DNA from: Elsinoe ampelina
Lineage: Eukaryota
NCBI GenBank assembly: GCA_010093995.1
Contig: ML992504.1
Span: forward strand, 744,001-808,000
Reading direction: 5' to 3'
DNA: 64,000 nucleotides
Shown piece after piece: positions 12,309 to 61,776 of the stretch (position 1 is its first letter; the number at the start of each line of letters is the position of its first letter). The notes below the pieces were generated by a model. It was not told the origin of the DNA, made no database searches, and was given only the letters and a program-made list of their open reading frames with translations. A program made the position numbers and the translations under genes.

Positions 12309-14508
12309 GTTGTTGTTTGATTCGGTTTGTCTGGATGGGGGTGTTTGATTGCTTATTTGTGAGAACGTCCTCGACTATGAGAGGTCTTTACGGTATTTGT
12401 ACAAACCTCCTCATACTCACCACCGAAAGTCCGAATGGGCTTGAATGCATTGTCCCCTCAATGTCCGAAGCCAAGTCTGTGTGTCCGGACTTTTTGACAG
12501 GATCCAGATATGTGAGCGCTAGATGGCATCTTCTCGTCGGAAGACCATACACATGCTAACCAAGTCGACGAAGATATGTCCACGAAGTGCATGGCATGAG
12601 CTCTTGAGACTACAGTAGCATGTCCCTCTGATGAGCAAAGGTCTCATAACTAAAAAGACGATCAGCACGATCGACCGCGGGGTTGGTTTATGCTCGGCTC
12701 AGTCCACGGATGAGCTAAACTCTATCCAGTAAAGCCTCCCTTTACCGCCTTTTCCCTCTCCTCCTACTCCGACGACCAGCCATCTCGTTCCCCTCTCGAC
12801 CATTGATCATTCAAGGTTGCTTTCTGATCCGCTGTCTCAACACGAATCGCTGATCACCTGGTTTGCCCAGCATTTGCAGCGCCGATTCTCCGCTGTGGAA
12901 ATGCACGACACACAGCCTCCCGCCCGCCAAAAGTGGAGGACAGATTACGAGACCGTGAGGATCTTCCGTTAGCTTTGATGTACAGACCCGCCTGCGAATT
13001 AGCGACTGCCACACCGCAGCCAAATCTCCATTGACTTTGATACTCTGGCTGGATCTTGTTGTCATCCCTGCACGCTTCCGAGAGGGTTGGCAGGCGTGCT
13101 ATCATCTCGCCCGGCATTGCTATCAATCTCAACCAGGATAGCGACCAACACCTTCAGCTCTGGTACCGAAATCCACAGGAAACGACAACCCTCAACAGCC
13201 GCGGTCTGTCTTGCACCTTGCTGAGTCAAGCACCCACGCTGGCGCCGCTGTCAGTGTGCGGTTCGTGGCGTCAAGCGTGCAGAGGACCGATGTTCAGGCG
13301 TCTCTGACAACACATCAGCCCGCCGATTTGTCCAGTTCCTGGGGACCTCATCTGCACGTAAAAAAGTCAATGCTCATGAGCAGAACACACACACATCCGC
13401 GCCATGCCCTCTTCCGTGTGGTTGTACACCCGCCGGAGTCAACGCCTTCAATGCTTGCTCGAAGACTCGGGTCTAGAGATGCCATAACTCACTTTGCCAT
13501 GAGTATCAGAATGATCTCGTCTCGCTGAACCATATAGTGTTTACCATGATAGCCGCTCCGTCCAATTTCCCCCTTGCATATGTCCTGACGACGGACAACT
13601 ATTTGCGGCGCTACCTAGTTCTAGAAGAGTTCGGTCCGCCGCCCTATTCGACAACATCGACCAGACTTCAACCATGGCATGGGGCCAAAGCTTCCATTCT
13701 ACCTTACCCCAATGCAAACGTGCCTCCTACCGAGATGACTGCCAGAACTCGGTCAACCCCAAAGCAGTCCGGCCCTCTTTCACGTGCTGCAAGGATCGAC
13801 GCTGTTGTCCACGGTCGTCTGCTGCAACCGTGGGTATCGACTGACGCCTGTGCGTTTTTCGTTACCATTTCTGTGGAGCTTTGACAAGATCAGAGCGCTT
13901 TTGCCTACTGTCTTCTGTGCGTCCTGCATCTGGGTCCAATGCACGCCAACACATCGTTCCCGACCTGCCAGAAAAGCAAATGAGTAATTCAATGTGCAGC
14001 AACTATGGATCACACGAGCCGAACCTGAGTGGCCGCCGCCGATGCTACCGCTGGCTAGTCCAGCGGACTACATGCTGCCATCCTCCGGTTCACAGCATAT
14101 TCTCCATACACTTGTCGGCTGTTTGTCCACCACTGCGATAAGTCAATCTCATCCAGTCGCCGCTACTGACTTGCCACTTTTTTTTTCTCCTCTTCCCTCG
14201 CTCTACTATTCAATAGTCTGCCTTCCTTGTGTTCACTTTCCGTTTGAAACAAAGAAACAAAATGACGTTTGTCTGAAGTCCCTTTCGGCGTCTAGCATCC
14301 AAGCATCGAAGCATCAGATACCCCAACCACTCCGTGTCGTCAACCAAAAACCACAAGAGAGTGTGTCCGTGGCACCCGAAGAGCGGCCTTATATCTACAC
14401 CTCACAGACCTACAATTCCAAATCATTAGAAGTCACAAGTCACCTGCACCTCCCGAGCCCAATCCCAAGCCCAACCACCGGGTACCAATCGCTCACGCCC
14501 ACGCCACC

Positions 14509-15234
14509 ATGTTCTACATAATGTATCTTACCAGTAAGCCCAACCAATCCCTCTTCCACCTCCTCTCCACCCCTCCCAATCACCCTCCAGCCCAACCATC
14601 CACAAGCATCCATCACCCTCCCTCCCCCCTCCCTCCCCATCTCCTCCACGGACCCCTCCCATCCTGACCCCAACCCCCAGGCCTCTGCACGCGCCGCTCC
14701 TGGCCCACGCCCCAATTCAGCTCCTTCCGCACCCGCACCGGCTACGGCTGCGTCGTCCGCGTCAACAACCGCGAATACACGACCGGCGACGTGTCGTACG
14801 CCACGGAAGAACTCGCCCGCAACGCCGCGGCCACCCAGGCCTACATGATCTGCCGCAACTTCAGCGTCAACGACGGCATGTTGCCCGGCCAGCGACCGGG
14901 CATGGCCGCCGCGGGGAACGCGGGCGGTACCCAGGGGTTGCCGGTCGCGATTGGCACGGGGAGGCACAGGAGGGCTACGGGCGGGTCCGGGGCCAGTGCG
15001 GGGAGTGGCGGGAGTGCTGGGGAGGGGAGCGTGGAGGAGGGCGCCAGTAGTGGGTCTTCTGCGGGAGGGGGGTGGAGGAGGGGGGTGGAGGAGGGGGTGA
15101 GGGGGATGGGAGCGGGGTTGGGGCATAGGGGTGGGGCGGAGAGGAGGGGGAGTGCGGTTTGTCCGTGTAGGAGGGCGCAGGTGGCCGGGTATGGGAGGTG
15201 TTTGTATTGTTTGAGGGAGGCGGGGTATGCGTAG
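14509..15234 (+). CDS. Small fungal protein with an N-terminal dsRBD-like domain and a C-terminal CxC..CxxC motif (192 aa, 2 exons)
   Basis: Exon 1 is 14509-14533 (MFYIMYLT). Intron 14534-14680 (GTAAGC..CTGAC..CAG). Exon 2 reads SLCTRRSWPTPQFSSFRTRTGYGCVVRVNNREYTTGDVSYATEELARNAAATQAYMICRNFSVNDGM and is in frame with track ORF 14791-15234. Confidence 0.8.
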
Positions 15235-15775
15235 GGAGGGCCTCGCGGTCCTGGTCAGGGAGGGATGAGGGGTTGTCTGCATCGGGTGGTTTACCGTGGT
15301 AAGGCAGGGAAGAGGTGGTTTCGGTTTGTTGAAGGCAGGAGGTGGCTCTAACGATAACGACTCACGACCCAAAGAGCATCTGCATGATGTTACGGCCGTT
15401 TACAACGACTTTCTCATTGAGCTGATCGACGTCTTTCGATCGAGGCATAGCACCAAAAAAACATAGACAGCATTGATGCCCTCATGTGGCTTGCCCAAGA
15501 AATTTCTCATCTAATTCACTCAACATCTCTCGCCTGGAGACTGTGTCCTTTCGTTGTTGTTGCCCACGACTGTTTGATACACGCTTGAGTATTGTCATGC
15601 CAGCAGTCTCAAGGCCACGTGGTCTCTCAATAAGTAATGCATTCCTGCCCATCCTGTACCTATCCATGTGCCCATCCACGCCAAGACACAAGCGCACCTG
15701 TCCCACCCACAATGCAAAGTGGTATCAACATATCCCCAACCACCCCGAACGCCCAAGATGCATACACATGCCCAC

Positions 15776-17860
15776 TCATCTCTTCCTCCCCTTCCCCCTC
15801 CTCCCCTTTTTCTCCCCCACCACAACCTCACCCCCCTCCACCTCCCCCTTTTCCAGTCCTTCCGCCTCCTCAATTTTCCTCAACTGCTCCCTCCCCTCGA
15901 CGAACATGGTCAAATCACGATTCAACTCCTTCAACTCCTCAATCTCCTCTTTCAACTTGCCTTCCCCTGCGCGCTTCTCCCCAACCTCTTTCTCCATAGC
16001 CTTGATACGCTCCAACAGACCCTCGTTGATCGTCTTCTCTTCTCGAACTTGGGACATACTGCTCCGCGCTAGCCCCTCGAATTTATCCGCGCGAAGCTTC
16101 AGTTTCTCGGTTTGTGACCTGAGGGAGTCGACTTCCTTGCCTAGAGCGTCGCGGTCTTGTTGCGCGGCCTGGATCTCGGCGAGGGTTTCTTCGAGGCGCT
16201 TCCCGGCTTCTTCGGCGCGGGTAGCGGCGGAGCTGGCCTTGTCGACCGCTCGTTGGACTTGTTCTTCAAAGTACCGTCGCTGACTTTCGAGTTGGCCGGT
16301 GAGGAGGTAAGTGTACTCGCTCGCCATGTTCTCCATTTTTTCACGCGGGACGCTGTCCCCGCCTTCGCTTCTGAAGGCTTCGTTGGGGTGGCCTCCGCGG
16401 CGGCCGTTGCCGACATCGATGAAGCCTCGTCCAGCGCTTGGGTCTTTGTTTTGGATTAGGCGGTGCACGTACCCGTCCCCGGCGTAGTCCCAGACGTGTT
16501 GGCTGGCAATATCCATGGCGTAGCAGTGGCTTGTCGCTTCCCAATGGGCGAAGGCATGGGCGCTATCGTAGCGGCCGCAGCCGACATTGCCGCAGATGAG
16601 ACATATCCAGAGGTTCTGGTCGGAGGAGCAGGTGGCGCAGATGGGCGCGGTGTCAGGGCCAGGAGTGTCTAGTGGCCGAGGATAGGGAAAGGTGCTGCTT
16701 GGAGACTGGGAGAAGCGACATACCGGACAACCTGAACCTCGCCATTTCTCAAGACAGGCGCAGTGAAATACGTGCTGGCAGAGGATGGTGAGAAGACCAG
16801 TGGTTTCGTCCATGCGTTCGAGGCAGACCGGACAGGTGGGTAGCTCGGTGAGGGCCGAAGTGGGCGGTGGAAGAGGCTTGAGCGGCAGAGAAGAGGTGAA
16901 AGGGTCAGTGGCAGAGTGGGGAAAGGATGAGGTCGGAGTGAGGAAGGTGACGGTTGAGATGAACACGACGTGACAGTTCTCTGGCTAAGATGGATCAGTG
17001 GTGGTCGAGCAGGGAAATGGGGGTTCACATACCTCCATAGCGCTAAAGAGCCGGCCGTTCCATGCCTTCTGCCATTCTCGTGCCTTCTTAGGGGAGCGAA
17101 ACTTCATGAGAACCATGTATTTGTTGGCTCGCCCGGTTCTGATGAGGCGGAAATGGCTAACGTCCTCTCTTGTCTGATCACCCACGAATCCGAGAAGATC
17201 GCTGGGCATCATCCAAGAGGGAACCGCCAGTATACATAGCGTAGAGCACTTGTCGATATCAAAACTCGCTTCCTCCTTGGTAACCAGGCTCTTTCTGCTC
17301 GATGTGCTGAGATCCGGTACCTCCTGTGACTCCTTGTACAATCGCACCACTCCCCATCCGACGTCCGTTGTCTTTGCATCGCTCGGCACATATACAGCTC
17401 TGGTATGCGAGGCTCCAGACGCCTTGACGGGATTCCCCTTCTCTTGCGCTTCCATGTCTATGCTCTCAATACTGACGGGGCCAAATCGCCAATCTTTGCT
17501 GGCGTGCTTGGAGGATGGTTTGGGTGAGGAAGGCACATGAGTCTGATTGTCTCTCAGTGCGGGATTACGCTCAGGTAGGAGGAGAGCATCTCCTGGCGTA
17601 TCCAGATGACCAGCAGAAGATGGGCGAGTCTCTGGAGTAAGAGCGCGTGTTGGTGGAGGTGAGATCAGATTATGCTTAGCTCTTGCTTGACTGAAGTCTG
17701 ACGTCCAAGGCGTTGATCTGTGAGTCGGTAGAGGCGCGGTGAATATATCAGTCTCTGCTGGTGGTACGAAGACGTGCTGCGTATGTGAATCATTACTTGC
17801 GGTCCTGGCTGGATTTCGAGGGTACAGCTCCAGCTTCAGATGGTAGAGATGGGTGGGCAT
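15776..17860 (-). CDS. ETP1: BRAP2/ETP1-type RING and UBP-zinc-finger E3 ubiquitin ligase
   Basis: BRAP2 RRM-like region (LCILAVPSWM..YMVLMKFR..WNGRLFSAME) and intron 17032-16985. Then RING CPVCLERMD..CQHVFHCAC..CPVCR, ZnF-UBP LWICLICGNVGCGRY..HAFAHW..VWDYAGDGYVHRL, and a coiled coil. Confidence 0.95.
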
Positions 17861-18176: not shown

Positions 18177-18925
<749 letters not shown>

Positions 18926-19265
18926 GGCTGCGGTAGGTGTGTTGTGAGTGCGAGTGTGGTGTGTGTAGTACTAACGGTGGTGAGGACTTGTTGTGAAAGG
19001 TGGTGATGTATTGTGGTGAAAGAGAGGAGGAGAGAAGTGGCGTGATGGTGTTTAAGAAGGAACGGCTGAGACTGAGGATGAGTAAGTCAAGAGGCGGGCG
19101 GTGTCTGGGGAGGCGTGTTGGAAGGCGGCAATCGTCTCAAAGTGGCTTAGACCCACCTAGAAGCTTCCTTGACGCAACACTCAACAGCATGTGAATCCCG
19201 ACCGCCCCCGCGCGTTTGTGGTTGTCTCACTCTGGCAGACACCGATCTCGGGCCGCGAAGGATGC

Positions 19266-23638: not shown

Positions 23639-25514
23639 ATGTTACCCGCTTTGGTCCTCGCCGTCGGTGTGCTTCTGCTCTACCGAATCATCCGGACTGT
23701 CAGACAATACTTTGCGCTGAGGGATTTTGGCGGTCACTGGACTGCAGGATGGACTCGATTATGGCTCCTTCGCGTCAACAGTTCTGGAAGGATGAACGAG
23801 TACTTTCGTGACATTAATGAGAAATATGGTAAGCACCTCTCACTTTATCCTGAAACATCCACAATCCTTGCACACACGGGAGCTTGCACGGACTGTGCCG
23901 CCTGCGGTCACTATGCATCTGTCAGGTATCAGGATAGACGATCATCATGCAATGGCAAACGTACATGAAATAAAAGCGCCAATATCGTCCGTCCGTCGTC
24001 TTCCCATATCACAGCATTCTTATCACTTACCAAAAATGCCTCGGCTGACCACGAACCACAGGAGCGACGGCACGGATAGCACCGCATATGCTAATCACGA
24101 CCGATCCCGAGCTCTACAAGCGCATGAACGCCGTCCGAAGTACCTTCACCAGAGCAGAATGGTACTTTGCACTCCGACTGCATCCCACGCGGGATAACAT
24201 TACCTCCGTAATCGACGAAGATGTCCACTCGAGCATCAGATCGCGCATGGCGCCAGGATATTCGGGCAAAGAAAACACCTCGATCGAAAGCGACGTCGAC
24301 TCCAAAGTCCACAACCTCTTCGCCCTGATCGACAAATCCTACCTATCAACCTCAACCACCTACCGCCCCATCGACCTCTCCCGCATCATCACCTTCTTCA
24401 CCCTCGACGTCATCTCCCAACTCGCCTTCGGCCACGAATTCGGTTTCATGGCCAAAGACTCGGACCCCTTCGGCTACCTCGCCAACCTGAAAGAGTTCCT
24501 CCCCGCCATCCTCGTCTTCGGCGCCTACACCGAACTGACCAAAATCCTCCGACTCCCCTTCATGAAAGCCGTCCTGCCCAAATCCACCGACAAGCGCGGC
24601 CTGGGCAAAGTCATGGGCTTCGCGGCCGAGCGCGTCGGGGAGCGCTTCGGCGACAAACCCATCGTGCGCAAGGACATGCTCGGGTCGTTCATCAAGCGCG
24701 GCCTCACGCAGGAAGAGCTCGAGTCTGAGACCCTGACCCAGATCACGGCCGGGTCCGACAGCACCGCCTCTGCGCTCCGCATGACGCTGCATTTCGTCTG
24801 CACCACGCCCAACGTGCAGGCGCGGCTGTTCAGTGAGGTCCACGCCGCCATCGCGGCGGGCAAGGTCTCCCGCCCCATCATCAAGGACTCGGAGGCGCGC
24901 CAGCTGCCGTATCTCCAGGCTTGCATCAAGGAGGGGCTGAGGATGTATCCGCCCGTCACGGGACTGTTGGCGAAGCAGGTCCCTCCTGATGGCGCGACGA
25001 TTGACGGCAAGTTCGCGCCTCCTGGCACGTGGATCGGGCAGAATTCGTGGGGCATGCAGAGGCGGAAGGACATTTATGGGGTTGACGTCGATGTGTTCCG
25101 GCCCGAGCGGTGGTTGCCTAAGGACAACAGCGAAGCGGAGAAGGTGAGGGTGGGTCGTATGACGGAGACGGTGGGGTTGGTGTTTGGGTATGGGAGGTTT
25201 GGGTGTCTCGGTCGGGGTGTGGCGACGATGGAGTTGAATAAGGGGCTGATTGAAGTGAGAATTTCCCCGTTTCTGCCTGATCGTGGCGAGGTTCCTTTTT
25301 GGAGGGCTCGTACTGACTCATCCTCCAGCTTCTCCTTCGGTACAACTTCCAGCCCGTTTCCCTCTCCAAGCCGTTCGACGAGCTGTGCGTCGGCTTCTTC
25401 GTCCACGAGAACATGTGGTTCCGCCTGACGAGGCGCGAAGATGACTTCGACCCAGCCGCTACGCCTGCGGAAGTGGGAGAGGCAGGAGCTCTGCCAGGTG
25501 CGCCAGAAGAGTGA
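23639..25514 (+). CDS. Cytochrome P450 monooxygenase (pisatin demethylase-like type), 3 exons
   Basis: N-terminal TM anchor; introns 23829-24061 and 25255-25328. I-helix AGSDST, EGLR (ExxR), PERW, heme motif FGYGRFGCLG. The last exon LLLRYNFQP..ENMWFRLTRR ends at TGA 25512-25514. Confidence 0.95.
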
Positions 25515-33000: not shown

Positions 33001-33867
33001 GTATTGTCATCTCAACGTGTCAACAAGGTAGGTCTTCCACAGCGCAACCGAAGCCAGCCGAGCAGTACATGGCGACGACAACAACAGCGAGGGATGAAGC
33101 GTGTCTCCTACAGAACAGGAGACCAGGCCGACCAACCGGTACACAGTCTTCCAACCGACGTGAATCTCCAGCGAATCAGCAAGTACAAGCGGACTCCCAA
33201 AGCTGGTCGCACACCAGGTAGACGACCGCGACGGCTGCATTCACCACCTATACTTGAGAAAACACCGACTCCCGTCGGTCAATCCGCGACTGAAGCGAGG
33301 TTTCCCTGCCGCAGCCACAGCGCTGTCCTCGAAACGCGTCCTCCGCTTTGTCAGTACGACGGTAACCAAAAGTTGAGGGTGGCCGTGGTTCTGGCGTGGC
33401 GGACACCTCGAGGCAGAGTCCATGTATCACCCACCACGCTGCCTTGGCCGCGCGTGTTGGCTACCAGAATAGTCCGCCGCCGCTCTATCCCCTATTTTGG
33501 CAGGTAGATGCATGCAGGGTATCTTTTCGGTCTCTTCCAACAACGCTTGGAGTCCACGGTGTAGACATCGGGGATGGTCTTCGAACGAGATTTACCGGTA
33601 CGAAAGGCCAGATAAGTCGACAACCAAGCACGCGATGGACTTCTACAGGTACAACGCTGTGCGGAGCAGTCGAAATTGCAGCAGCGATCGTGACGGAGCC
33701 AGCGAGAATGGAGGCAAAGCAAACGTACATCGAAAACCACATCGTGTGCTTTATCATCTCTCATATATCATCTACCATACTCTCTAGCTTCCTCCCACCT
33801 CCTACCCCCACGGTCTCCCAACCCATCACCATCTCCTCCCCTCCCCTTCCCCTTTCCCTTCCCAACC

Positions 33868-35553
33868 CTACTCCCTAGCAAATAAATCCCTCCAAAACTC
33901 CCTAAACCCATACCTCGGCCTCCTCTCATCGTACACCTTCGCGCCTTTCCCCGCAAAACGTTCCATCACACCCCCTTCCCGATGTCCAATCTCCTCCACC
34001 CTCCTCGTCGGCCGCGCCGCTCGCGCCCGTATCTCGCCCGCCACCAACGGCGCCACGTCGGCGTAGCAAGCCCGTAGTTCGCGCTCGAGAGCGAAGTAGG
34101 GCTTTTTGGCGAGGTTGGGTGCCATGAGGTTGTAGCTTCGGGTTAGGGCGTTGAGGGAGTCGATCGCGAGGCGGTGGTAGGAGAGTTCGGTGGCGAGGTA
34201 GGAGGGGTCGCGGAAGGGGGGGAGGAGGGGGCGGGGAGAGGGAGTGGGGGAGGGGGCGGAGGAGGAGGAGCTGGAGGGGGAGGGGGAGGTTGTTGGAGGG
34301 AAAAGGTCCGCGGTGGAAGGAGGGGAGATGGTGGTGGTCGTTGGAAGGGATGAAGGGGTGTTGGTTGCATCGACTGCTTGGGTGGTGATGGTTATGGGGG
34401 ACTCGAGGGTAGGGCCGGAAGAGTTTGGGGAGAGCTCGCCGGAGAGGCTGATCTGGGAGACCTGCCCGTCAGGGCTGACGGTGTTGATGTGCTCTTCTTT
34501 GGACTTTGGTGGATTCTCGATGGCTTCGGCGCGGGCGTACTCTTCTGCTAGAGATATCTGGTACTGGAGACCGCCGCCTTTGCTGGATATGGTCCTGGCA
34601 ACATGGCGCTTCCAGTCTGATCGCAAGCGGGCACGGAACCGGTTGGCTGTGCTGACGAGTTCTTGTTGCTTCTCGATCCAGGGTGGGACGATCTCTTGCC
34701 GTTGGATGATCTTGTTCATGAAGTACTCGGTGGTGTCGAGGAAGGGCGAGCTGGCATTGTAGTCCCGTTCGATCTTCTTGCCTCGGGGGAGGTTCTTGAA
34801 TTGTCCTCGAGCAATGGCATCCTCTATTCTCTCATTGGCCAAAGACGCAAGCCCTTGTATGGTAGCAGGTACTGCTCTTGCACCGGGCGTAAATCGTTCT
34901 TTCAACTCTTTCCTCATCTGCTCCCGTTCTTCCTCGGTCATGCTCGAGTCCTTCAGGGATGAATAGATGCTCGTCTTGTCCCTTGCATTTGCAATCCGTG
35001 TACCACTGCCTGCTCCTTTGGTCCTCGACCGACCTGTGTCTACCTTTGTCGGCATACGTATCCCAGGTGGTCGAGCAGGTCTCTTCAGCGGCTTGTGGGC
35101 GTCATTGAGCATTCGTAGAGCAGCATCTTCGACACTCTCAGTCCCGGCCCAAGGAGCTGCGCCTGCGATGTCTCTTGTTCCAGCTCCGGCACTCGGTCGT
35201 AGCTCAGCCTGAGCAAAGGCCGAGGCGTTCTCCGAGCGAAATCCGGCATTCGCGATTCGTTCCTCGAGCTGTTTCTTCAAGTCTTCGCTGAAACCGGCCT
35301 CATCGACTGCCTTGCGAGCACTTCTGCCGCCAGTTTCCAACGACTCAGAGGTGAGTTCCGCCAGCCTACGTGACATTGCGCCTTGCTCTTTCTCAGATCC
35401 TCCATCTTTGACGGCATGCTGCGTTTCCCGATGTGGTGGCGAGGGGCGGTATCCCCGCCTTGTAGTGATCAGAGGCGCATTTCGAGTTTGAGGTGCAGCA
35501 GCTTGCAGGCAGCTCGAGCAGATGTATGGCACTAGTTCTGATCTTCCTCGCAT
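33868..35553 (-). CDS. DUF1992 / DNAJC28-conserved-domain protein, probably mitochondrial
   Basis: Core LASLANERIEDAIARGQFKNLPRGK..DTTEYFMNKIIQRQEIVPPWIEKQQE, and RSYNLMAP. Likely start ATG 35553 (MRGRSELVPYICSSC..RRGY, presequence-like). The track's 35685 start is a GTG. Confidence 0.88.
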   Translation of the reverse strand: MRGRSELVPYICSSCLQAAAPQTRNAPLITTRRGYRPSPPHRETQHAVKDGGSEKEQGAMSRRLAELTSESLETGGRSARKAVDEAGFSEDLKKQLEERIANAGFRSENASAFAQAELRPSAGAGTRDIAGAAPWAGTESVEDAALRMLNDAHKPLKRPARPPGIRMPTKVDTGRSRTKGAGSGTRIANARDKTSIYSSLKDSSMTEEEREQMRKELKERFTPGARAVPATIQGLASLANERIEDAIARGQFKNLPRGKKIERDYNASSPFLDTTEYFMNKIIQRQEIVPPWIEKQQELVSTANRFRARLRSDWKRHVARTISSKGGGLQYQISLAEEYARAEAIENPPKSKEEHINTVSPDGQVSQISLSGELSPNSSGPTLESPITITTQAVDATNTPSSLPTTTTISPPSTADLFPPTTSPSPSSSSSSAPSPTPSPRPLLPPFRDPSYLATELSYHRLAIDSLNALTRSYNLMAPNLAKKPYFALERELRACYADVAPLVAGEIRARAARPTRRVEEIGHREGGVMERFAGKGAKVYDERRPRYGFREFWRDLFARE

Positions 35554-35721
35554 CCAGTGAAATACTCCAGTAGTTGATGAAGGGGTAGGAAGAGAGGAGC
35601 AAGTATCAAGATCTCTGTAGATCTTCATGGTAAGTCCGAAGCTCCTTAAATCCGAAGCCATCATTTCTTGCACATGTTTCTGCACACCTATCGTCTCGTC
35701 TACACAAGCTTACCATGGACG

Positions 35722-36742
35722 ATGCCCAACGATGACACTTCCACCACCGAAACTGGGTCTTCCAGACCCGTTCAGGTCTCGCGTAAGTCCCACGGGAGCT
35801 GGACCGACATCTTCGCGCTCCCGCGCCCCTTGAGAGAGCTCTTCTCCAAATTTCCTCTCATCACCTACGCAGCCAACGAGCTCCCATCGCGAAGCCCTAA
35901 ACATCAAGACAAGCATGCGCTGTACATCTTCGCGACTCCCGAAGGTGCGAAGAACAACGAGCCCTCCTATAACCCGACCTGCCTGAAATGGCAAACCTAC
36001 CTCAAGCTCCGCGGCATCGACTTTGTCCCCATCGCATCCAACAACCACGCCTCACCGAGCGGATCCCTGCCGTTCATCCTACCAGCGCCTTCCCAATCGC
36101 AAGGCAGCAAGACCTTCTCCTCTTCGCCCGTCCCAGCATCCAAGATCCGGCGCTGGGTCGACGACCAGGTCCCTTCTTCCACAGCCCAAAGCAGCATGAA
36201 AGAAGACATCTACCTCTCCCTGCTAGACCATCGCCTCCGTCGCGCATGGGTACGTCTCCTTCTCCCCCCTCCCCCGTCCCCGTCTGCATACTAACCCTTC
36301 CCAGCTGCACCAACTCTACCTCTCCCCCCCCAACACCCCCCTCCTCACACACCTCTACTGCCACACCTCCCTCTCCCCGCTCATCACCCGCTCCACCCTC
36401 GCCTCCCTGCGCGCCGCCGCCTCCGACGAAATCAGCAAATCCTCCCCCACCGCGTCCGTCTCCGAAATCGCCCTGCAAGAAGAAGGCTACGCTGCGCTCG
36501 ACGCACTGGATGAGTTATTGGGGAAGGACGAGTGGTTCTTCGGCGCAAAGGAGCCGGGGGTGTTTGATGCGGCGGTGTTTGCTTATACGCATTTGTTGCT
36601 TGAGGAGGAGTTGGGTGGGGGAGGGGAGGGAGGGGTGGGGCAGGGGTGGGGTTGGAATGGGCTTGGGGGACATCTGAAGGGGAAAAGGGGGTTGGTGGGG
36701 CATAGGAGGAGGGTGTGGAGGAGGGCGTTTGGAGGGAGGTGA
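35722..36742 (+). CDS. SAM35: Sam35/metaxin-like mitochondrial outer membrane protein (GST-like fold)
   Basis: LFSKFPLITY.NELP.R, PSYNPTCLKWQTYLK..SNNHASPSGSLPFI, intron 36250-36304, then EWFFGAKEPGVFDAAVFAYTHLLL. Confidence 0.88.
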
Positions 36743-36981
36743 TGAGGGGGAGGAGAGGGGCATGGCAGGGGAGGTATAGGGAGGGTGGAAGTAGAAGAAG
36801 AAGAAGGGAGAAGAGACAGGGAGAGAGCAAGCAGGAGAGCAGGACAGGTTGGGTACAGGATACGCATTCACACCACCAGGTTTGATCGTGTACATCGTCA
36901 TCGTCAGCAAGACACTCCCATCCCCCTCTCGTCAACACCTCGCTATGCTCCCCTTCCCCTCGCCCTCCACGCATGAACACC

Positions 36982-37708
36982 CTACTGCTCCACAGCAAAA
37001 ACATCAAACTTCCTCCCCCTCACATCCTCCTCCTCCTCCCCATCCAAAGTCTCCAACTTGCCCTGCTTCAAATCGTAAATCAACCCATGCAGCTGCAGCC
37101 CCCTCTTCCTCACCGCCTCAATCACCGTGGGGTTCATCTTGAGCACCTCCAGACTATTCAACACATTCAACTCGCTCAACTTCCTCACCTTGTCCTCCCC
37201 CGCCGCCTCGAGCTCCTTCCCGTGCTCGAACCGCAGCTGCTTGATAGGCTGCAACCACATGTCCAACACGCCCAGGCTCTTGTTCGCCAGAGCGGCCTGC
37301 ACGCCGCCGCAGCTCGTGTGCCCGCAGACGACGGCGTGTTCGACCTTGAGGTGCGCGACGGCGAACTCGATGACGGAGAGGGACGAGAGGTCCGAGGGGG
37401 AGAGGACGTTGGCGATGTTGCGGTGCACGAAGACGTCGCCGGGTTTCAGGTTGAGGATTTGTTCGGCGGGGATGCGGGAGTCGGAGCACCCGATCCAGAG
37501 GATCTTGGGGGATTGGCCTTTGGAGAGGTTCTCGAAGATGTGGGGGTCGTTCTTTTGTTGGATGGCGCGCCATTCGGCGTGGCCGGCTAGGGCGCGGGTG
37601 AAGGCGTCTGGGAGGGAGAGGGTTAGGTGGAGGGAATGGGGCAGAGGGGAGGAGGAGTGTACCGTTGTTGGAGCCTGAGGTCATTCTGGCGAGGGTGCGG
37701 CGGAACAT
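36982..37708 (-). CDS. Beta-class carbonic anhydrase (223 aa from the first ATG)
   Basis: Exon 1 is 37708-37663, intron 37662-37608. Then GQSPKILWIGCSDSRIP..PGDVFVHRNIAN..VVCGHTSCGGV, giving the Cys/His/Cys zinc ligands. Confidence 0.95.
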
Positions 37709-38703
37709 GCGAGGTGGGAGGGACAGTGGTGTGGCGGGGTTTGTACTTGTACGGGGAATTGGTCGCGGGGTGGAAGATGGGGATTGGCTGGTGACGGTCA
37801 ATTGAGTGGTAGGTAGTCGGTGAAAAGACAAATTGAAGAGATAGAAATGCGACCTCGAACCCCAAGGCCGGTGCGAGGCTTGGTGGGACTGTCTGTCGAG
37901 CTCCAACCACGCTGGGCTAGCTTGGCCGGATCTTGTGTGATGAGCGTGATCAGTTGTGCTTGATTGCTTGCGATCGGCTGAATGGCTGCACAGGACTGGT
38001 GGACTTGTCAGGGAAGCTTACGTTTCTCAATCGTTCCTGTAGATCGCGCTGGTTGTGATAAGCAAAGAAAAGTTGAGAGCTGTGGTGGGACCGCGAGGGG
38101 GAGCTTGGACGGTGGTTGTTGAGAAAGGCTTCGGCTGGCAGGTGGCCCCGGGAAGTTTATCGCATTGCATCGTAAGGAAGACGCTGTCGTTCGACGATAG
38201 CATCCATCTGCATACTCGATACTGCTATCACTCTTGGTCAGTGAGCTCTGGAAGTTGACATGATTTCTCCGCGGAGCTAATCGCCATCCACGCTCGAGCA
38301 GAGGAGAAGACACGCTCATGCCACGATGACGGCACAGGTCGGTAAAGGTCCGAGTGCCGAATTCACTCAACCAGGGCTGGGTCGTTTAAACAAAACCCTG
38401 GGCCCGGTTCGGCCTGTGGTTGGTCAAGCATTCCAAGTCCTTGGGTCCAAATTTTTGACCATCTCCGCATCGATTGTGGAGCGGTCGGAAATCAAGGCAT
38501 CCAACGCATCGGTCCAGGTTCAGGACTTTCTCTCGGTTCAAAGACATACACATTGATCGTTCTGGTTGCTAGTCTTGCTTCATCAATCGTGCGCCAGCCC
38601 ATGACTTCGTGACACCGTCTCTCGGCGTGTGCTGTTGACCGCCAAAGACGTGATATCTGACCTATCCGAAATGCAACGCCTCTCAACCCGCTGCTGCTAT
38701 CCA

Positions 38704-46133: not shown

Positions 46134-47696
46134 TCATGAGAAGTCTTCGTCTTCGTCTGTTGCGTCTTGTTGTGCCTCTGCCGCTTTCGCAGCAGTATCA
46201 TCTCCCGTGTTCATGGCTGCTAGGTATTTCGTCACGACCTCGCTGACTGCCAGCTTCTCCTTTTCCTCCTCAAAAAACGCGTACGCTTTCTCTAGTAAAT
46301 TCCCCTCCAGCTCCCTCAGCTTCATTGCCATGTTCCTCACGTCCTCTGGAATGTCCGTACCCTCACCGTAGTCCATACCATTGACTTCATCCTCGCACCC
46401 ATACAATTCGGCCAACTGCTCCTCCACCCTCCCCTGCAAGACCGACACCGCCCTCAACCTCCACAGATCCCACCTCTCATCCCCCTCCAACCTCCCCTTC
46501 AACTCCACCGCCCCCTTTATCTCCTCCCCCTTCCAAAAGCCCCTCAACTCTTCCTCCCCCTCCACCGTCCTCTGAACCATAAACTCCAACCCATCCTCCT
46601 CATTCACCACCACCAACCAAACCCACTCCCCCTCCCACCTCACCCCCTCCTCCCCCAGACAATCCACAATCTTCACCCCCGGCGCCACGCCCGCCACCGC
46701 CCTCTTCGCCTCCCCCAACGGATCCTCCCCCGTCCCCAAATCCAAAAACAATTCCCCCGCACTTTCCCTCCCCTCCTCCAAAAACCCATACGAAAACACC
46801 ATCTCGCACGCCCCCTTTCCATCCCCGTACGTGATCGTCACCTCCTCCCCTCCCCCTACCTCCTTCCCCGCGCGGAGAAGCAACACCCCGTCCCCCGCCC
46901 CGTCAACCTCGTAGATGGCCTTGGTGCCCTCCCCGCCGCAATGGTTCGCCATATCGATCCCGGGCGCCATGCACGGCCCTACGCCCGGGAACTCGAGGGC
47001 GCGAGAGCGGTACATGCCGTCTACTGCGATCCAGTCGGGGAAGGTGAAGAGGCCGTCGGCGTCGGAGAAGAGGTCGGTTGTCCAGGGGAGGAGGGCGGAG
47101 AGGGTTTGCAGGGTGGTGAAGTCGCGGTTGAGAGAGGTGAGTTTGGCGCGGAGGGCGGGGAGGAGGGTCGTGCCGCGCAGGAGGGGGAGGAGGGTGGGGG
47201 GCCAGAGGGTGGGGAGAGGGGGGAGGGGGAGGAGGCGGAGGTAGGTTGTTAAGGGGGTGTGGGTGAAGTGGGGGGAGGGAGGGGAGGGGTGGAGGAGGTA
47301 GGATTGGGTGAGGAGGAAGAGGGGGATGAGGGTGCGGGGGTTCTGATGGGGGTTAGGAATGGATAGATGATGGGATCCGAGGGGAAGGGGTTGGCTTACC
47401 TGGCCGAACTCACCGAGGGTGGAGAGCAGATCGCGGAAGTCCCTGTCGACTTTGGCGTGTTGCTCTATGCGCTCTTTCGATAATATCAGGTCCCGAGGGA
47501 CGGTCATGAGAGTGGTGTGGCTGTCGGAAGGGCATGATAGTGGTTTTTGAGCGAAGATGCCCGCACCACGCTCGGGATGGACTGGGTCAACGCCGACTTT
47601 GATGTCGTGGAGCTTGATGTTGTTTAGAGCAGCCCATGGTGGTAGAGCCTCTGATGGTAGCTGTAGCCATCCTTCTTCCTTGCCTTCACGGATCAT
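46134..47696 (-). CDS. SET-domain protein lysine methyltransferase (Rubisco-LSMT/RKM-like)
   Basis: RGAGIFA, LMTVPRDLIL, YRSRALEFP..MAPGIDMANH, EEVTITYGDGK..EMVFSYGF. In-frame intron 47399-47343. Confidence 0.9.
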   Translation of the reverse strand: MIREGKEEGWLQLPSEALPPWAALNNIKLHDIKVGVDPVHPERGAGIFAQKPLSCPSDSHTTLMTVPRDLILSKERIEQHAKVDRDFRDLLSTLGEFGQVSQPLPLGSHHLSIPNPHQNPRTLIPLFLLTQSYLLHPSPPSPHFTHTPLTTYLRLLPLPPLPTLWPPTLLPLLRGTTLLPALRAKLTSLNRDFTTLQTLSALLPWTTDLFSDADGLFTFPDWIAVDGMYRSRALEFPGVGPCMAPGIDMANHCGGEGTKAIYEVDGAGDGVLLLRAGKEVGGGEEVTITYGDGKGACEMVFSYGFLEEGRESAGELFLDLGTGEDPLGEAKRAVAGVAPGVKIVDCLGEEGVRWEGEWVWLVVVNEEDGLEFMVQRTVEGEEELRGFWKGEEIKGAVELKGRLEGDERWDLWRLRAVSVLQGRVEEQLAELYGCEDEVNGMDYGEGTDIPEDVRNMAMKLRELEGNLLEKAYAFFEEEKEKLAVSEVVTKYLAAMNTGDDTAAKAAEAQQDATDEDEDFS

Positions 47697-51166: not shown

Positions 51167-51952
51167 ATGGCACCAAAAGACGCCCCAGCAGCGCCTGCCA
51201 GCCCTGCTACGGCATCGAAGAGCAAGACCCCTCCCACCACATCACCGATTGAGATCCTCGACAACCCGCTCTCTAAAGCCTACACCCATATCCACACTTT
51301 GAGCACCCTCTCGATCTTCACGTATACTTTCCCCTCTCTCGTCGCCGATCCCATCGCAACCATGGCTGGCTCCCTCCTCCCCCTCGCCCTGTTTCAGGGT
51401 ATCTACTGTGCCATCTGCCTCCCCGGCACAACCAGCAACACGAGCACAAAGGGCAAGAAGAAAGGCACACAAGAGCTTACCATCGGCTTCCGGATAGTGG
51501 TACGTCCTCTCTCCCCCCCAATGCTCCTTTAAGCTAACCCCTCTCAGCCCGCTCTCCTCTCCCTCGCCCTGACACTCACCCTCGGCACCCCCCTCCTCAC
51601 CCTTCTTCTCCTCCTTTTTGGTGCCCCCTTCACGACGCACCAGCTTCACACCCTCCTCTGCGCCGCTCACATCGCCCTTCTCGCCGCCCCTCAGCTGATC
51701 TACGTCCACGGCGTGGTGGCGGAGAAATGGCTCGCCATTGCCAGCTTGAACGTGCCGGTGGATGAGGTTTTTGGTGCGAGCTTGGGGGCTGCGGTGGGCG
51801 CGTGGGTGGGCGCGGTGCCGATTCCGTTGGATTGGGATCGGGAATGGCAGAAATGGCCGGTCACGATATTGGCGGGGGCGTACGCGGGGTGGGCGGTGGG
51901 AAGGACAGTCGGGGGAACGGTGGGGAGAGGGATGAGGGTGAAGTTGGAATGA
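51167..51952 (+). CDS. GPI11: GPI ethanolamine-phosphate transferase subunit PIG-F/Gpi11
   Basis: Exon 1 is 51167-51499, intron 51500-51547. Exon 2 carries LLFGAPFTTH..TLLCAAH..GAWVGAVPIPLDWDREWQKWP, the PIG-F signature. Confidence 0.94.
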
Positions 51953-52934
51953 GCTTGGGAAAGACGAGATGTTTGTTGAAGATTGGATGACATTAGGCAG
52001 GAGTAGGATCGCTACAGCGGGACGCTTGGAATATTGCCACGCAATGTCTGCCATAGCATCAGCCTTCCGAGCAGTAAGGCCCATGATAAGCCCTTGCTAG
52101 TTCATCACATCTGGCACGATGTCAACTCATTCACGGCAAGTCGAATGGGAGTGACGACGTACAGCAGGACCACTAGCAGATGCCACTGGTCTGGTACGAC
52201 GACCACTTGTAGACGTCAGTAGCAGATTACTGATCTCCTCGCAACTCATTCATTGCACAAGAGACACAATGACAACCAAACCACCAAGCCCTAAACCTCA
52301 AATCCAAATCTCGCTCCAACCCCCACTTACGCAAACCACCATGACGACCACAACCTCCCATCAGCCTCGTCATCAATCACCTTCTCTCCTCCAAACTATG
52401 AACTGCAATCGATACCAACCCCCACGAACGTCTTTTCCATGCCACAGACCTACGCGCAGATCCCCATCTCCCCCCCCTTCTGCGTCTGACGTACGTGGCT
52501 TCCCCGTTCCTATCCCATGACAAGGAGAGCGGTAGATAGCAGAGATAATGGCCACTGCTCAGCCCACTCCAAAGTGAAAGTGACGTTTCGTTCCTGCCCA
52601 ACGGTCATGGCTCGCAAGGTGGACCCCACTCGTGCGGAGGCAGCATAACAGTGGACAATATGCGAGGGAAACAACGCTCAGTAATCCCCCTCTCGCACTG
52701 TCGGATTGTTCCTCGTGGCAGTCAGATCGCAAGACTGGGAAATCAGCAGCCGTGCCTGCCCGTCAGGGAATGGCCACTCATCTCCCAGACCGACGGCCGG
52801 TGGAAGGGCCAAGGGCCAACGGGCGATGGAAACGGGCGGGTCCCCCCGGGTGTCTTTGCTCACTTGTACCTTGCATACTGGGGCCTTCAATGCGAGGGAG
52901 GACCAGACAGGGCGTGGTGCCGAGTGCGTCACTC

Positions 52935-52961
52935 GCGGGCAAGGCGGGCAAGGCGGGCAGG
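52935..52961 (+). repeat. 3x 9-bp tandem repeat GCGGGCA(A/G)G, with a G10 run about 20 bp downstream
   Basis: gcgggcaag gcgggcaag gcgggcagg; poly-G at 52983-52992. Confidence 0.6.
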
Positions 52962-55710
52962 GCTGATGTCGCGGGTGCTGCCGGGGGGGGGGCTTGACAT
53001 GTGTCTGTCGTTGTTGATGGTGGGACGTGGGAATGGTTCTTTGAGCGGTGGACCTGCTGTTTTGGGACTAGGGGGGTGGTGGGTAAGGTGTGTTGGATTG
53101 GGGGGAGAGACATGGTGAGAGGATGTGGTGATGGGATGGGAAGGAGCGGCGGGTAGGAGAGACTTTGGAGGTGGGTGGGTGGGGATTTGAATTGATGATG
53201 GAAGGGTAAGGCTGAGGTTTGTATTGCTTGGTGTGGCTTGAGAGGTATGGGGATTGTTGGAGGGATAGTGTCACGATATGCGGATGGCACGTGGCATGCA
53301 TGCTGTTCGTAGTATACTTCTGGTCATTGAAGCGACGGCGCTTGATGAATTCGTACTTACTGCTGGGCTTCACGCTCAACGAGAGTGGTTTCCTCGATGT
53401 GGGAAGTGTATCACAAGGCTGACAAAAGGACTATGCTATAGCCTCAGGGTTTGAGTCTTGTAGCCTTACCAGTATCCGATCGGGTCCATGTCACGATGCC
53501 ATGAGATCTCTCAATGAGCCTCTTTCAATACAGGCAGGTCAGACAATTGCTCGTCAGCCTTGCAGACGATAACCGACAGAGCAATATCGACACCGCCCGG
53601 CGCTGCCGCCCATAGCTCACGTTGCAAAAGTCTCGGCAAGATCTCGAACCAGATCTCCACAAAAAAGAAGATATCGAAGCCACAGCCGGGACTGGACCAA
53701 GAGTCTTGCGAGCAGGAAGAAAGACATGCAACGCCCGCTCACGTGGGAAGCGACTTGGACAGCGAGGTTAAATCGGCGGTGGCGGGGATTGATTGGCCGC
53801 CCTGTGGTCAACGGGTGCATTGAAACAATAACGGGGATAGAAAAGCAAAAGCAGCTAGAAAAGAAGGTGTGTTTCGGGTACTGACCGCAATTGTCTTGGG
53901 CAGTAAAAGTGTGCTGGATTGACGTTGATTGGTGTCGGGAGATGTATCTTGTACTGAAATGCAAGAGGTGAGGTTTAGCGGTCGAGGATGAGAGGCGGTG
54001 GATGTGTTGGCGGTGCAAAAGAGTGGAGACAGTCCCGACGTGTGACGCTGTTCCTTCCTCGGCTGCAGCTTCAGATTCAGATCCAGAGCTTCCCGACCAT
54101 TCAGGGTCGAGCATTATCGATTGTGAATTGTCCAGACGAACGCGTCCCCTTCGCGGGCTGAGCAAGGGATGACGAGGACGCCAATCGCAATCAATTACCA
54201 GTAATCAATTATCGCTGTGGAATTGAAGCAAAATAGGATCAGCATTCCTTTATCGACAACGGATGGGCCGTCAATCTGCCCCTGGCCAGGCGGAGCGAGA
54301 GCGAGAGTTTGCGTGCAGCAGAGCCTCCTCGAGGTCTTGGGTCCAAGGACGCAATCGGCGACTGTTGGATGCTTGTGGCGCCGGGCCCACGCTTGAAAGA
54401 GACGAGAATCAGAGAAATGCTGTCGAGCGTCAACGGGCGGCTGTGGGGCCTGCAGCTGTTTCTTCTGGCCTCTACCAATGCAAGACAGGAATGGAATGCC
54501 AATGCCCGGCCAGGTGTCCAAAAACGGTCGAAACAACGCGCCCGCAATCATCACTCTGAAGAGTCTGAAGGGACTCTGGGCGGCAGATGACGCTGTTTGT
54601 CCCTCAAATGGACCTTGAAACAATGTCGACGTCCAAGGAGAGGCGGTCACCAGCGCGTGGAAGAGATCTGGTGGCCTCTGCAGGCGTCTGTCCTTCTGAC
54701 CTCAAAAATAGAGTGTGCATGGACTGGGCCGGGGGCCTCTGTGCCTGCTTGCAGGGCGCGTCGAGTCTATTCGCAAAAAGATGCATGAAACATTCTTCGC
54801 AGAAGCCATCTGACCAGGACCGGGCGCGCCGCGTGATTGGCTGCGACCGGGACTTGCAGCGCTGCCCGCAAAGTAACGTGAGCCTATCACCTGCGACTCC
54901 CTCTCCTTCTCTCAATCCAAGCAACAACACCGTCCACCTTGGTCCGCATCCCTGGAGCGCGAGCATTCTAGAGGCAAGGCCCATAAAGAATGCTCGCCGC
55001 TCCAGGGCAGCCATGCATACTCCAGAACAAAGCACATTAATCCCGTTTCCTTACCCCCATATACTTCTCTACTATCCCCCCTTCTCTCACGCCTCCTACC
55101 CTCCCCAAGCTCCAATACAGTCGTACTCTCAATCAAATCAACCCGCCGTCTATCATTTCGCTTCTCCAACGGCCTCGTCCAATTTCGTACCGACTCAGTT
55201 CAGGTCTTCCTTCGTCACCGGCCGTTGTCACGCTCGCACCTGATTTCTCCTAACACGGCCTAACGACTGTCAACGACGACGCAACGGCCGACACACTATC
55301 CGGAATAGTTCATCTGCCCCCAACCAGGCGACACAACCCACCTGCCGCAAGCCCTGCCATTGGAACGACTGCTCTGCCGGCCAGAGAGTCACCCGTTACC
55401 ATTGTCTAATACTCTATTTCACCTGCCACTCCTCGAGTCCACATATAGACAAAAGCTCGACCCCTCTGCATTCATTCTTCTTTCTTGATATCTGTCGATC
55501 CATTCTCGATCAGTATCAATACCTCTCCACCATTGTCGGGTCTATTGTATTCCAGACTTGACTGAATATCTCTATTGTCACTGCCTGCTGTACAGCCTGC
55601 ACTGACCAACCTATTGTTGCCGGGTATCAATAGAAGCCTAGCAATTTATAACCACACCACCCCGTCGAACACCTTTACTGGACTGTTCGACCACACACAC
55701 TTCACCAGCA

Positions 55711-58127: not shown

Positions 58128-58322
58128 TCTGTTCGAACAGCGAGTCATGGCGGACAAACACTCGAGTCAACCTCCGAAATTTCGCTTGCCCCTCCATGAC
58201 ACGCCATACCCTAGACGTTCAATACCACTACAATTAGGTCCTCAAGACTCTCGACCACACCTATTAATCACCCATTCTAACATGTTATAACACCCATCGT
58301 AACACCAATCCAGCCCGAAACC

Positions 58323-59657: not shown

Positions 59658-59716
59658 AACCATACTGTCTCCGGACGCCTCGCTATAAACCCTCTCCCTA
59701 TTCCCATTCCTCCCCT

Positions 59717-61723: not shown

Positions 61724-61776
61724 ATCCTCCCCCTTTCCCTCACCCGTCCACAATCCATAGATCTGCACTTCCACCC

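Follow-up and report, generated by a model that had tools for sequence, protein, structure and literature searches.

Gene-phased blocks of C-rich and G-rich coding strand in a 64-kb stretch of Elsinoe ampelina DNA

The strand composition of fungal genes is known to change from one end of the gene to the other. In the available portion of their article, McLean and Tirosh (2011; PMC3315797) reported that, in most of about 64 fungi, the coding strand carries an excess of C at the 5' end of genes and an excess of G at their 3' end, the genes of most species being mildly C-biased along their length with a G-biased end. According to the same portion, this bias is found at fourfold degenerate (4-fold) sites, extends into promoters and 3' untranslated regions (3'UTRs), and alters amino-acid usage. 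The species set includes the Dothideomycetes Pyrenophora and Stagonospora, Elsinoe not being among the species named there, and the cause is left between phase-specific mutational regimes of transcription and an adaptive model of C avoidance. This question has been open since 2011, with little follow-up. The present work concerns a 64,000-nucleotide stretch of the Elsinoe ampelina genome (contig ML992504.1, positions 744,001 to 808,000), hereafter called the window, in which C-rich and G-rich blocks alternate along coding genes. All the statistics given below are drawn from this window.

Two other descriptions are related to this phenomenon. The accessible part of Fujimori et al. (2005; PMC555766) gives a mean skew of C over G of 0.13-0.18 at the 5' ends of transcripts in filamentous ascomycetes, for which G-to-C transversions are suspected. 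In grasses, the retrieved part of Tatarinova et al. (2010; PMC2895627) distinguishes two gene classes by their silent-site G+C content, the G+C-rich class being short and intron-poor, with a preference for C or G at third codon positions (C3 versus G3) that shifts along the coding sequence. Among the records listed by a search of the literature, there was no account of gene-polar skew for Elsinoe nor, beyond McLean and Tirosh, of nuclear gene-polar skew in Dothideomycetes.

The blocks of the window are a strong instance of the known gene-polar skew of fungi, and neither a gene-independent feature nor the signature of replication origins. In many genes, mostly short ones, the coding strand is near G-free upstream and near C-free in the last 0.1-0.9 kb of coding sequence and 3'UTR. 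This instance is set apart by its great strength, by its restriction to genes with G+C-rich silent sites (mostly short), and by its intensification in Elsinoaceae.

Skew blocks and their phase with genes

Skew was computed as (G-C)/(G+C) on the + strand, in 100-bp windows for the three main domains. A block was defined from 150-bp windows with an absolute skew above 0.5 over at least 50 positions, the null expectation being provided by 50 first-order Markov simulations. The window contains 32 such blocks, and none appeared in any of the 50 simulations; the C-rich to G-rich blocks announced in a preliminary description of this DNA are thus confirmed. The comparison set, consisting of 80 unrelated or distantly related metagenome loci, holds 15 blocks in 752,913 bases, as against 32 in the 64,000 bases of the window. 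In the three main domains, the + strand skew passes from -0.89 (33750-33899) to +0.87 (34200-34299), from -0.85 (36300-36399) to +0.88 (36600-36699) and from -0.79 (36950-37049) to +0.67 (37750-37849), with a G+C content of 0.68-0.72 at the switch points. The arms of these domains are matched, with 0 differing letters, by spliced RNA contigs from two other studies, for instance at 33300-34211, 36304-36605 and 36775-37607. An assembly artefact is excluded because of this exact match. The two runs concerned (X3 and X4) were taken as RNA since their contigs are spliced; these contigs carry no strand, start, end or level. The skew pattern is therefore real and far above chance expectation.

Neighbouring blocks alternate near-strictly, with 13 C-to-G successions, 13 G-to-C, 3 G-G and 2 C-C. 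The 13 C-block/G-block pairs, called domains here, measure 0.45-1.25 kb regardless of gene length. Individual blocks are 103-547 bp long, and the skew reaches at most about 0.6 kb on either side of the switch. C-to-G gaps range from 138 to 840 bp (median 355) and G-to-C gaps from 102 to 8775 bp (median 1828), the latter being 102-422 bp where domains abut. The centre of the domains is CpG-rich, with 11 CpG per 100 bp versus 6.7 in the window. Among the 13 intervals listed in the preliminary description, 12 hold a C-block/G-block pair. The remaining one, 61720-62340, is weaker: its right arm culminates at +0.56, is partly driven by amino acids and is not G-biased at 4-fold sites. The large genes CDC24, CDC14 and fwd-1 are free of blocks, as had been noticed.

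The same description held that the skew ignores gene strand, on the grounds that + and - genes share the same polarity. This argument is uninformative because a C-to-G block is its own reverse complement, and for the same reason any gene lying under a C-to-G domain reads C-rich in 5' and G-rich in 3'. The claim does not survive the comparison with gene positions, since the blocks are in phase with gene bodies. About 17 genes of the window were placed by Pfam, several gene models being based on open reading frames (ORFs) only. The midpoint of the C-to-G switch falls inside an assigned gene in 12 of the 13 domains, assigned genes making up 50% of the window (binomial P=0.0018). These 12 domains overlap a single gene each, and none spans two. 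Where domains abut, three of the four G-to-C switches are intergenic, and the fourth falls within the terminal part of NCS6, at the beginning of the convergent VPS60 3' end.

The ends of the genes display the same arrangement. At the stop codon, the skew of the coding strand is positive in 13 of 19 genes (Wilcoxon P=0.014); it exceeds +0.5 in eight and is below -0.5 in none. Past the stop, it is positive at +50 bp and close to 0 at +150 bp. At the start codon, it is negative in 8 of the 9 placed starts, below -0.5 in four and above +0.5 in none, three of the nine start coordinates used in this computation being 6-60 bases off. A comparison of the first third of the coding sequence with the last shows a rise in skew for 20 of 22 genes when all sites are considered (P=1.2e-4); with 4-fold sites only, 16 of the 22 genes show it (P=0.05; median +0.63). 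The 4-fold rise concerns 7 of 9 + genes and 9 of 13 - genes. The 4-fold skew of the first third is negative in 20 of the 22 genes and 0.00 in the remaining two.

The extent of the domain depends on the gene. It covers the entire gene where this is short, as in carbonic anhydrase, VPS60 and the small ORFs at 3911 and 14668. In longer genes, the G-block occupies the 3' end or its vicinity, and the C-block lies mid-gene, 0.3-0.8 kb further upstream. At 4-fold sites, long genes such as BRAP2, B-box, S10 and DnaJC28 carry a mild C bias over most of their length and a G bias in their last 40-80 codons. When 12 domains are oriented by gene, the 3' block exceeds the 5' block in length in 10 of them, versus 7 of 12 when they are read on the + strand. 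A tracking of gene ends by the switches had been regarded in the preliminary description as evidence against its own reading; the switches come close to it, being phased with genes, except that some C-blocks start mid-gene.

The three main domains (Table 1) illustrate this organization. In the DnaJC28-like gene, the coding-strand skew is +0.69 and +0.90 at 50 bp before and after the stop codon. Its C-block lies in a disordered linker rich in Pro, Ser and Thr, about 0.3-0.55 kb upstream of the stop, with a 4-fold skew of -0.8 to -1.0. In the SAM35/metaxin-like gene (Pfam GST_N_4/SAM35/GST_C_6), represented by a spliced model whose intron is defined by the joints of RNA contigs, the corresponding values around the stop are +0.81 and +0.79. 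The skew then falls from +0.75 to -0.63 within about 150 bp, between this gene and the convergent beta-carbonic anhydrase gene. The intron of the latter is also given by RNA joints, and the protein of the spliced model (37684-37663 plus 37607-36982) coincides exactly with an annotated E. ampelina protein (P0001). Identity to it is 95% for the E. fawcettii orthologue and 92% for that of E. australis.

Site classes, silent-site composition and related species

The skew is strongest where the protein sequence imposes the least. At 4-fold sites, the proportions are C 0.75 and G 0.06 in C-blocks (n=362; skew -0.84) and G 0.74 and C 0.07 in G-blocks (n=378; skew +0.83). Genes thus pass from a C:G ratio of about 12:1 to one of about 1:11, and the described change from C-ending to G-ending codons is borne out. 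The C-block and G-block skews are -0.51 and +0.70 at codon position 1, and -0.68 and +0.43 at position 2. Only the ranking of the site classes is informative here, because the blocks were chosen by skew. Introns lying inside C-blocks reach -0.66 (SAM35), -0.83 (carbonic anhydrase) and -0.68 (SET), and that of fwd-1, outside the blocks, -0.28. Introns, as well as 3'UTRs with their positive skew past the stop, follow the skew as had been stated. Far from vanishing at synonymous and non-coding sites, an outcome that would have spoken against the early reading, the skew is at its strongest at 4-fold sites and in introns. The amino-acid shift was likewise found, from Pro, Leu, Thr and Ser to Gly, Glu, Val and Arg. 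Pro makes up 14.9% of residues in C-blocks versus 1.7% in G-blocks and Thr 14.1 versus 2.7%; Gly passes from 1.8 to 16.6% and Glu from 0.8 to 13.7%. The strand-asymmetric effect therefore operates at the nucleotide level and not at the protein level, in agreement with the localized strand-asymmetric process first proposed. Because 4-fold sites and introns carry the skew, the force acts on DNA or on the unspliced transcript rather than on the protein or the mature mRNA.

The blocks are also associated with the G+C content of 4-fold sites (GC4). In block-bearing coding segments, GC4 is 0.60-0.96, and at least 0.72 in 11 of 15. It is 0.48-0.52 in fwd-1, CDC24, CDC14 and the S10 peptidase gene, all four free of blocks. 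Over 220 bins of 40 codons, GC4 correlates with the absolute 4-fold skew (Spearman rho 0.38; P=9e-9). Silent-site G+C is near saturation in the domains, GC4 reaching 0.8-1.0 in many bins.

Related species were compared as proteins only, through the G or C content that amino acids force at codon positions 1 and 2, and the resulting lineage claim rests on three proteins (SET, NCS6 and carbonic anhydrase). In the columns of the SET C-block, this proxy is -0.67 in E. ampelina, -0.53 in E. fawcettii, -0.45 in E. australis and -0.53 in Sphaceloma murrayae; Myriangium duriaei gives -0.24, and 15 other Dothideomycetes range from -0.03 to -0.27. For the columns of the G-block, the same four species give +0.55, +0.45, +0.40 and +0.40, Myriangium duriaei +0.15 and the 15 others +0.14 to +0.33. 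When columns are considered conserved if at least 9 of 15 outgroups agree, the E. ampelina SET protein carries a different residue at 25 of the 58 such columns of the C-block; the corresponding counts are 20 of 102 for the G-block and 38 of 129 outside the blocks. The changes inferred in the C-block comprise 18 to C versus 3 from C, and 16 from G versus 1 to G; those of the G-block comprise 12 to G versus 4 from G. All the other bases contribute to these changes in similar numbers. For the NCS6 C-block, the proxy is -0.21 in five Elsinoaceae versus -0.02 ± 0.05 in 15 others, and in the G-block Elsinoaceae differ by about one standard deviation. From these protein alignments, the same positions thus appear to have shifted in one common direction within the Elsinoaceae lineage, and furthest in E. 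ampelina.

Outside this family, a scan of metagenomes with a carbonic anhydrase alignment returned no close relative, the best match being 55% identical. In the four closest loci (45-55% identical, apparently eukaryotic), the skew rises across the thirds of the gene by +0.49, +0.90, +0.26 and +0.75; in the other 26 loci examined the values are -0.07 to +0.30, and in the gene of the window +1.02. Two of these loci, on short fungal contigs, are at block strength: L002 over 900-1700 (-0.45 to +0.57) and L004 over 500-2500 (-0.4 to +0.69). The polarity from 5' C to 3' G is not peculiar to Elsinoe, because these metagenome loci share the rise.

Domains and neighbouring genes

Table 1. Positions in the window of the skew blocks, domains and switches, with the genes that carry them
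Feature	Position	Strand	Remarks
Aldo/keto reductase gene, C-to-G domain over the 5' part	151-886	-	gene continues beyond the window
Small ORF-only gene (3911-4615), C-to-G domain over the whole gene	3874-4929	-	no Pfam family
ORF-only gene (14668-15234), C-to-G domain	14458-15288	+	no Pfam family
BRAP2/RING/zf-UBP gene, C-to-G domain over the 3' 1.25 kb	15710-16963	-	absent from the preliminary description
Unpaired coding-strand C-block	18939-19089	-	directly upstream of the polyubiquitin coding sequence 18177-18899
Cytochrome P450 gene, internal C-to-G domain	24328-25236	+	G-block stops ~190 bp before the stop codon
DnaJC28-like gene, 3' G-block (coding strand)	33768-33985	-	C-rich on the + strand; Pfam DJC28_CD; last codons, stop codon 33868-33870 and ~100 bp of 3'UTR
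DnaJC28-like gene, coding-strand C-block	34143-34417	-	mid-gene, not the 5' end
SAM35/metaxin-like gene, C-block	36245-36421	+	from the 55-nucleotide intron (36249-36303) into the last exon
SAM35/metaxin-like gene, G-block	36559-36827	+	final ~180 bp of coding sequence, stop 36740-36742, 3'UTR
G-to-C switch between the convergent 3' ends of SAM35 and carbonic anhydrase	36828-36928		midpoint intergenic
Beta-carbonic anhydrase gene, 3' G-block (coding strand)	36929-37158	-	includes stop 36982-36984 and 3'UTR
Beta-carbonic anhydrase gene, 5' C-block (coding strand)	37566-37793	-	proximal 5'UTR, start 37684-37682, intron 37608-37662, first codons of exon 2
SET-domain gene, internal C-to-G domain	46322-47388	-	C-block begins at a 57-nucleotide intron; G-block stops ~190 bp before the stop codon
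Gene named GPI11 in the preliminary description, C-to-G domain	51529-51982	+	read as last exon and ~30 bp past the stop
C-block/G-block pair without assigned gene	52275-53266		Pfam search of ORF 52155-53118 empty
NCS6/Ctu1 gene, C-to-G domain	58226-59381	+	5'UTR and first ~1.06 kb
Snf7-family (VPS60-like) gene, C-to-G domain over the whole gene	59669-60435	-	
B-box zinc-finger gene, 3' G-block (coding strand)	61739-61888	-	overlaps the 3' end of the convergent HpcH/citrate-lyase-like gene

Pfam returned no family for the ORFs 3911-4804, 14668-15231 and 52155-53118. The name GPI11 is that of the preliminary description, the family search at this place having covered only the opposite-strand ORF 51242-52096 (no family), and the intron of this gene is predicted from sequence only. 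Between about 25500 and 33700, some 8 kb are free of skew blocks, and nine searched ORFs of at least 100 amino acids located there have no Pfam family. The polyubiquitin gene, with three ubiquitin repeats recognized by Pfam, shows 4-fold skews of -1.0, -0.92 and -0.37 in its successive thirds and no G-rich 3' block.

Several gene models deserve a comment. In the SET-domain gene, the intron at 47343-47399 (- strand, 57 nucleotides, GT..AG) is in frame and stop-free and is absent from the annotated protein (P0121); the genomic ORF reads through it and gains 19 residues. The E. ampelina database entry accordingly shares 96% identity with the unspliced ORF and matches it fully after removal of the intron. 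For NCS6/Ctu1 (58323-59654), the best database protein comes from Elsinoe batatas (95%), no identical E. ampelina entry being present among the matches listed; the annotated E. ampelina model may differ or be missing. The NCS6 domain stops about 270 bp before the stop codon, where the convergent 3' end of VPS60 begins.

The convergent stops of NCS6 and VPS60 are about 60 bp apart (59657-59717) and those of the HpcH and B-box genes about 54 bp apart (61723-61777). The 3'UTRs of each pair must overlap because of these short distances of about 54-60 bp. In both pairs, the 3' G-block of one gene puts a skew of the "wrong" sign on the last codons of the other, with 4-fold values of -0.4 and of -0.6 to -0.8. 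At SAM35 and carbonic anhydrase, RNA contigs covering 36617-38372 run from the 3' end of the former through the whole of the latter up to 38021 (X4) or 38372 (X3), passing the 5' edge of the C-block (about 37793) by 230-580 bp. This suggests overlapping convergent transcripts, together with a long 5' leader or a further transcript upstream.

RNA assemblies break at the most skewed low-complexity stretches, namely 33827-33870 and 34212-34298, and the contigs of such genes are fragmented. The most skewed stretches are thus a practical obstacle to short-read RNA assembly. The skew also fills both strands with long spurious ORFs and, through the replacements that it drives at conserved positions, introduces a compositional artefact into phylogenies and selection tests. 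A DNA run bearing the label of a different organism (X12) contributed 7 short low-depth pieces, 95-99% identical and none on a skew arm. Those within 34038-36133 match non-skewed parts and would fit a close relative or another strain in the sample. A second DNA run from another organism (X13) gave two pieces of about 20 bases only.

Explanations and known precedents

The blocks are very probably the gene-polar skew already known in fungi, phased with transcription units. That a mutational or fixation-bias mechanism, as against an adaptive one, produces it can be put forward only tentatively, and the explanation as a whole, a compromise of both parts, is considered reasonably likely. Under this explanation, a strand-asymmetric substitution bias linked to transcription (by mutation, repair or biased fixation) would act with a different sign in the early and the late part of the transcription unit, and would overlie a strong pressure in favour of G+C at silent sites. 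The asymmetry would be nearly undiluted because such a pressure leaves free only the choice between C and G. The tie to transcription is read from the position of the blocks only.

Several observations weigh against this explanation. The 4-fold rise is absent from 6 of the 22 genes, namely g5708, BRAP2 (both exons), DnaJC28, fwd-1, CDC14 and HpcH, and long genes show almost no rise. The C-block starts mid-gene in DnaJC28, SAM35, SET, BRAP2 and P450; its start coincides with an intron in SAM35 and SET, and with the predicted intron in the gene named GPI11. The G-block ends 190-270 bp before the stop in SET, NCS6 and P450. Neither these mid-gene starts nor these early ends are predicted by a pure picture of initiation versus termination. 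The composition of the two arms is mirrored (C 0.52 and G 0.10 versus G 0.50 and C 0.09, with A and T exchangeable; Fisher P=0.93), which is easier to reconcile with a single process operating on opposite strands than with two different regimes. In the SET C-block, the replacements are spread over many types (G>C 6, T>C 6, A>C 6, G>A 5, G>T 5), a breadth expected from selection or biased fixation acting on composition and unusual for a single mutational mechanism. In the highly conserved carbonic anhydrase, the shift is almost entirely synonymous, with little amino-acid change. The explanation does not account for the C-blocks that start mid-gene, for the mirrored composition of the arms or for the breadth of the replacements, and the adaptive and convergent-transcription readings therefore stay alive.

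In the adaptive case, selection would act on DNA or nascent RNA, either because a G-rich 3' part favours RNA:DNA hybrids, pausing and termination in a compact genome, or because transcripts that are first C-rich and then C-poor pace RNA polymerase II. A C-avoidance hypothesis of this kind is set out in the available part of PMC3315797. An adaptive cause would account for a spectrum that takes every route to C and away from G, for G-blocks ending about 100-150 bp past the stop, and for the many block genes found in tight convergent pairs (NCS6/VPS60, ~60 bp; HpcH/B-box, ~54 bp; SAM35/carbonic anhydrase, ~240 bp, bridged by an RNA contig). However, G-blocks extend into the coding sequence by 200-550 bp, and 25 of 58 conserved SET residues have been replaced in the C-block, a high price for an aid to termination. 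Moreover, HpcH, CDC24 and CDC14 have close neighbours yet no 3' G-block, and G-quadruplex motifs stay at the level given by composition; adaptation is therefore regarded as unlikely. The mirror-image arms, the C-blocks that begin mid-gene in five genes and the units of 0.45-1.25 kb whatever the gene length would be accounted for if each pair reflected two convergent starts, a sense (or internal sense) one and an antisense one near the 3' end of the gene, both with the same start-proximal bias of C over G on opposite strands. Such a skew is documented in fungi (PMC555766, in its accessible part). The antisense and internal starts are nonetheless hypothetical, the RNA contigs being strandless. 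The symmetric model does not predict the gene-directed asymmetry by which the 3' block is the longer in 10 of 12 domains, and long genes, mostly C-biased at 4-fold sites with a short G-biased end, are not symmetric either. This possibility is accordingly rated as distinctly improbable.

Mirror-symmetric arms and a GC4 of 0.8-1.0 in many domain bins, versus about 0.5 in block-free genes, could also be the footprint of recombination, through G+C-biased gene conversion combined with strand-specific resection and resynthesis beside double-strand breaks at gene borders. Resection and conversion tracts have a length range that includes the 0.2-0.5 kb scale of the blocks. G+C-biased conversion is, however, strand-symmetric and gives no skew, at odds with 4-fold C:G ratios of about 12:1 and then 1:11. 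The mid-gene block edges are not at nucleosome-free gene borders and block length is asymmetric with respect to the gene, so that this origin is given little credit. A related idea, in which the domain would be the last exon modified by cDNA-mediated conversion, fits SAM35 and the predicted models of SET, BRAP2 and the gene named GPI11. It was dropped, as the intron is itself skewed and as DnaJC28 has no intron at the block edge.

The two remaining candidates were both advanced in the preliminary description. Pairing of the C-arm with the G-arm in the mRNA is strong on composition alone, with cofolding energies of -112 to -219 kcal/mol for arms of up to 200 nucleotides, but it is no better than in arm-shuffled, composition-matched controls in 10 of 10 domains (z -2.0 to +1.7, mean -0.4), and introns, absent from mature mRNA, carry the skew. 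In the same way, 31 of the 35 G-quadruplex motifs of the window lie inside blocks, but 29.7 ± 4.1 are expected from composition and runs of at least five G are fewer than expected (86 versus 116). Selection for mRNA pairing or for G-quadruplex/i-motif structures is hence hardly credible. As for bidirectional replication origins at the C-to-G switches, the sign of the jump is that of bacterial origins and mammalian skew jumps (background in the available part of PMC3315797). Against them stand the 13 pairs in 64 kb, a skew limited to about 0.6 kb per side instead of the replicon scale, switches located inside the coding sequence of single genes in 12 of 13 cases, and a block strength that follows the silent-site G+C of individual genes. 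The G-to-C switches of abutting domains (102-422 bp), expected to be less sharp than the C-to-G ones (138-840 bp) in the early reading, are at least as sharp. Origins can be set aside with near certainty. On the whole, the interpretation first given to these blocks is partly supported.

The gradation among relatives invites a further proposal, for the moment doubtful: a runaway, specific to Elsinoaceae, of a strand-polar bias in mutation or fixation, linked to transcription units, would have saturated silent sites, with GC4 reaching 0.9-1.0, and replaced residues conserved across Dothideomycetes, progressing from Myriangium to E. australis, E. fawcettii and E. ampelina. Should this be true, the alteration of a single trans-acting factor, belonging to transcription-coupled repair or to transcription-linked recombination, may underlie the skew, and Elsinoe would be a natural system for finding the cause of gene-polar GC skew in fungi. 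Whatever the fate of this proposal, the skew is near-saturated, graded among sister species and visible in single genes, and its cause therefore becomes testable.

The comparison with known systems places the window closest to fungal precedents. The high-GC3 gene class of grasses (rich in G+C at third codon positions) belongs to another kingdom and, in the retrieved part of PMC2895627, has a CG3 skew (C versus G at these positions) of about 0.05-0.1 and no switch to a G-saturated 3' half. With the skew of transcription starts described by Fujimori et al., the window shares a coding-strand excess of C at transcript 5' ends and just upstream of the start codon; the accessible part of that paper treats the 5' end only, with no G-rich 3' half and no comparably large effect in coding sequence. 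The skew jumps of replication origins (bacterial oriC, mammalian N-domains) have the same switch sign as the window but differ by their scale (kb to Mb versus at most 0.6 kb per side), by their density, by the in-gene position of the switches and by the dependence on the codon composition of genes seen here. In mammals, GC-skewed CpG-island promoters and terminators that form R-loops were reportedly described by Ginno and co-workers in 2012/2013. These regions are said to share with the window a G-rich non-template strand at 3' ends and a G+C- and CpG-rich centre. Mammalian promoters, on the other hand, reportedly have a coding strand that is G-rich past the start site, the opposite of the 5' blocks, and much weaker skews.

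The skew of McLean and Tirosh is the closest system, the window having in common with it the 5' C bias, the 3' G bias extending into the 3'UTR, the effect at 4-fold sites and the amino-acid shift. Four differences emerge from the available part of their article. The AT skew, positive and uniform in their data, is near zero here, A and T being about equal inside the blocks of 12 domains (0.18/0.19 and 0.21/0.20). Some blocks of the window, unlike what they describe, begin mid-gene at an intron or a linker. Their values are genome-wide averages over genes, whereas single genes of the window reach -0.9 and +0.9 per 100 bp, with 75% C and then 74% G at 4-fold sites. Finally, and again unlike these averages, the blocks of the window are discrete, extend over at most about 1.25 kb per pair, and are limited to genes whose silent sites are rich in G+C.

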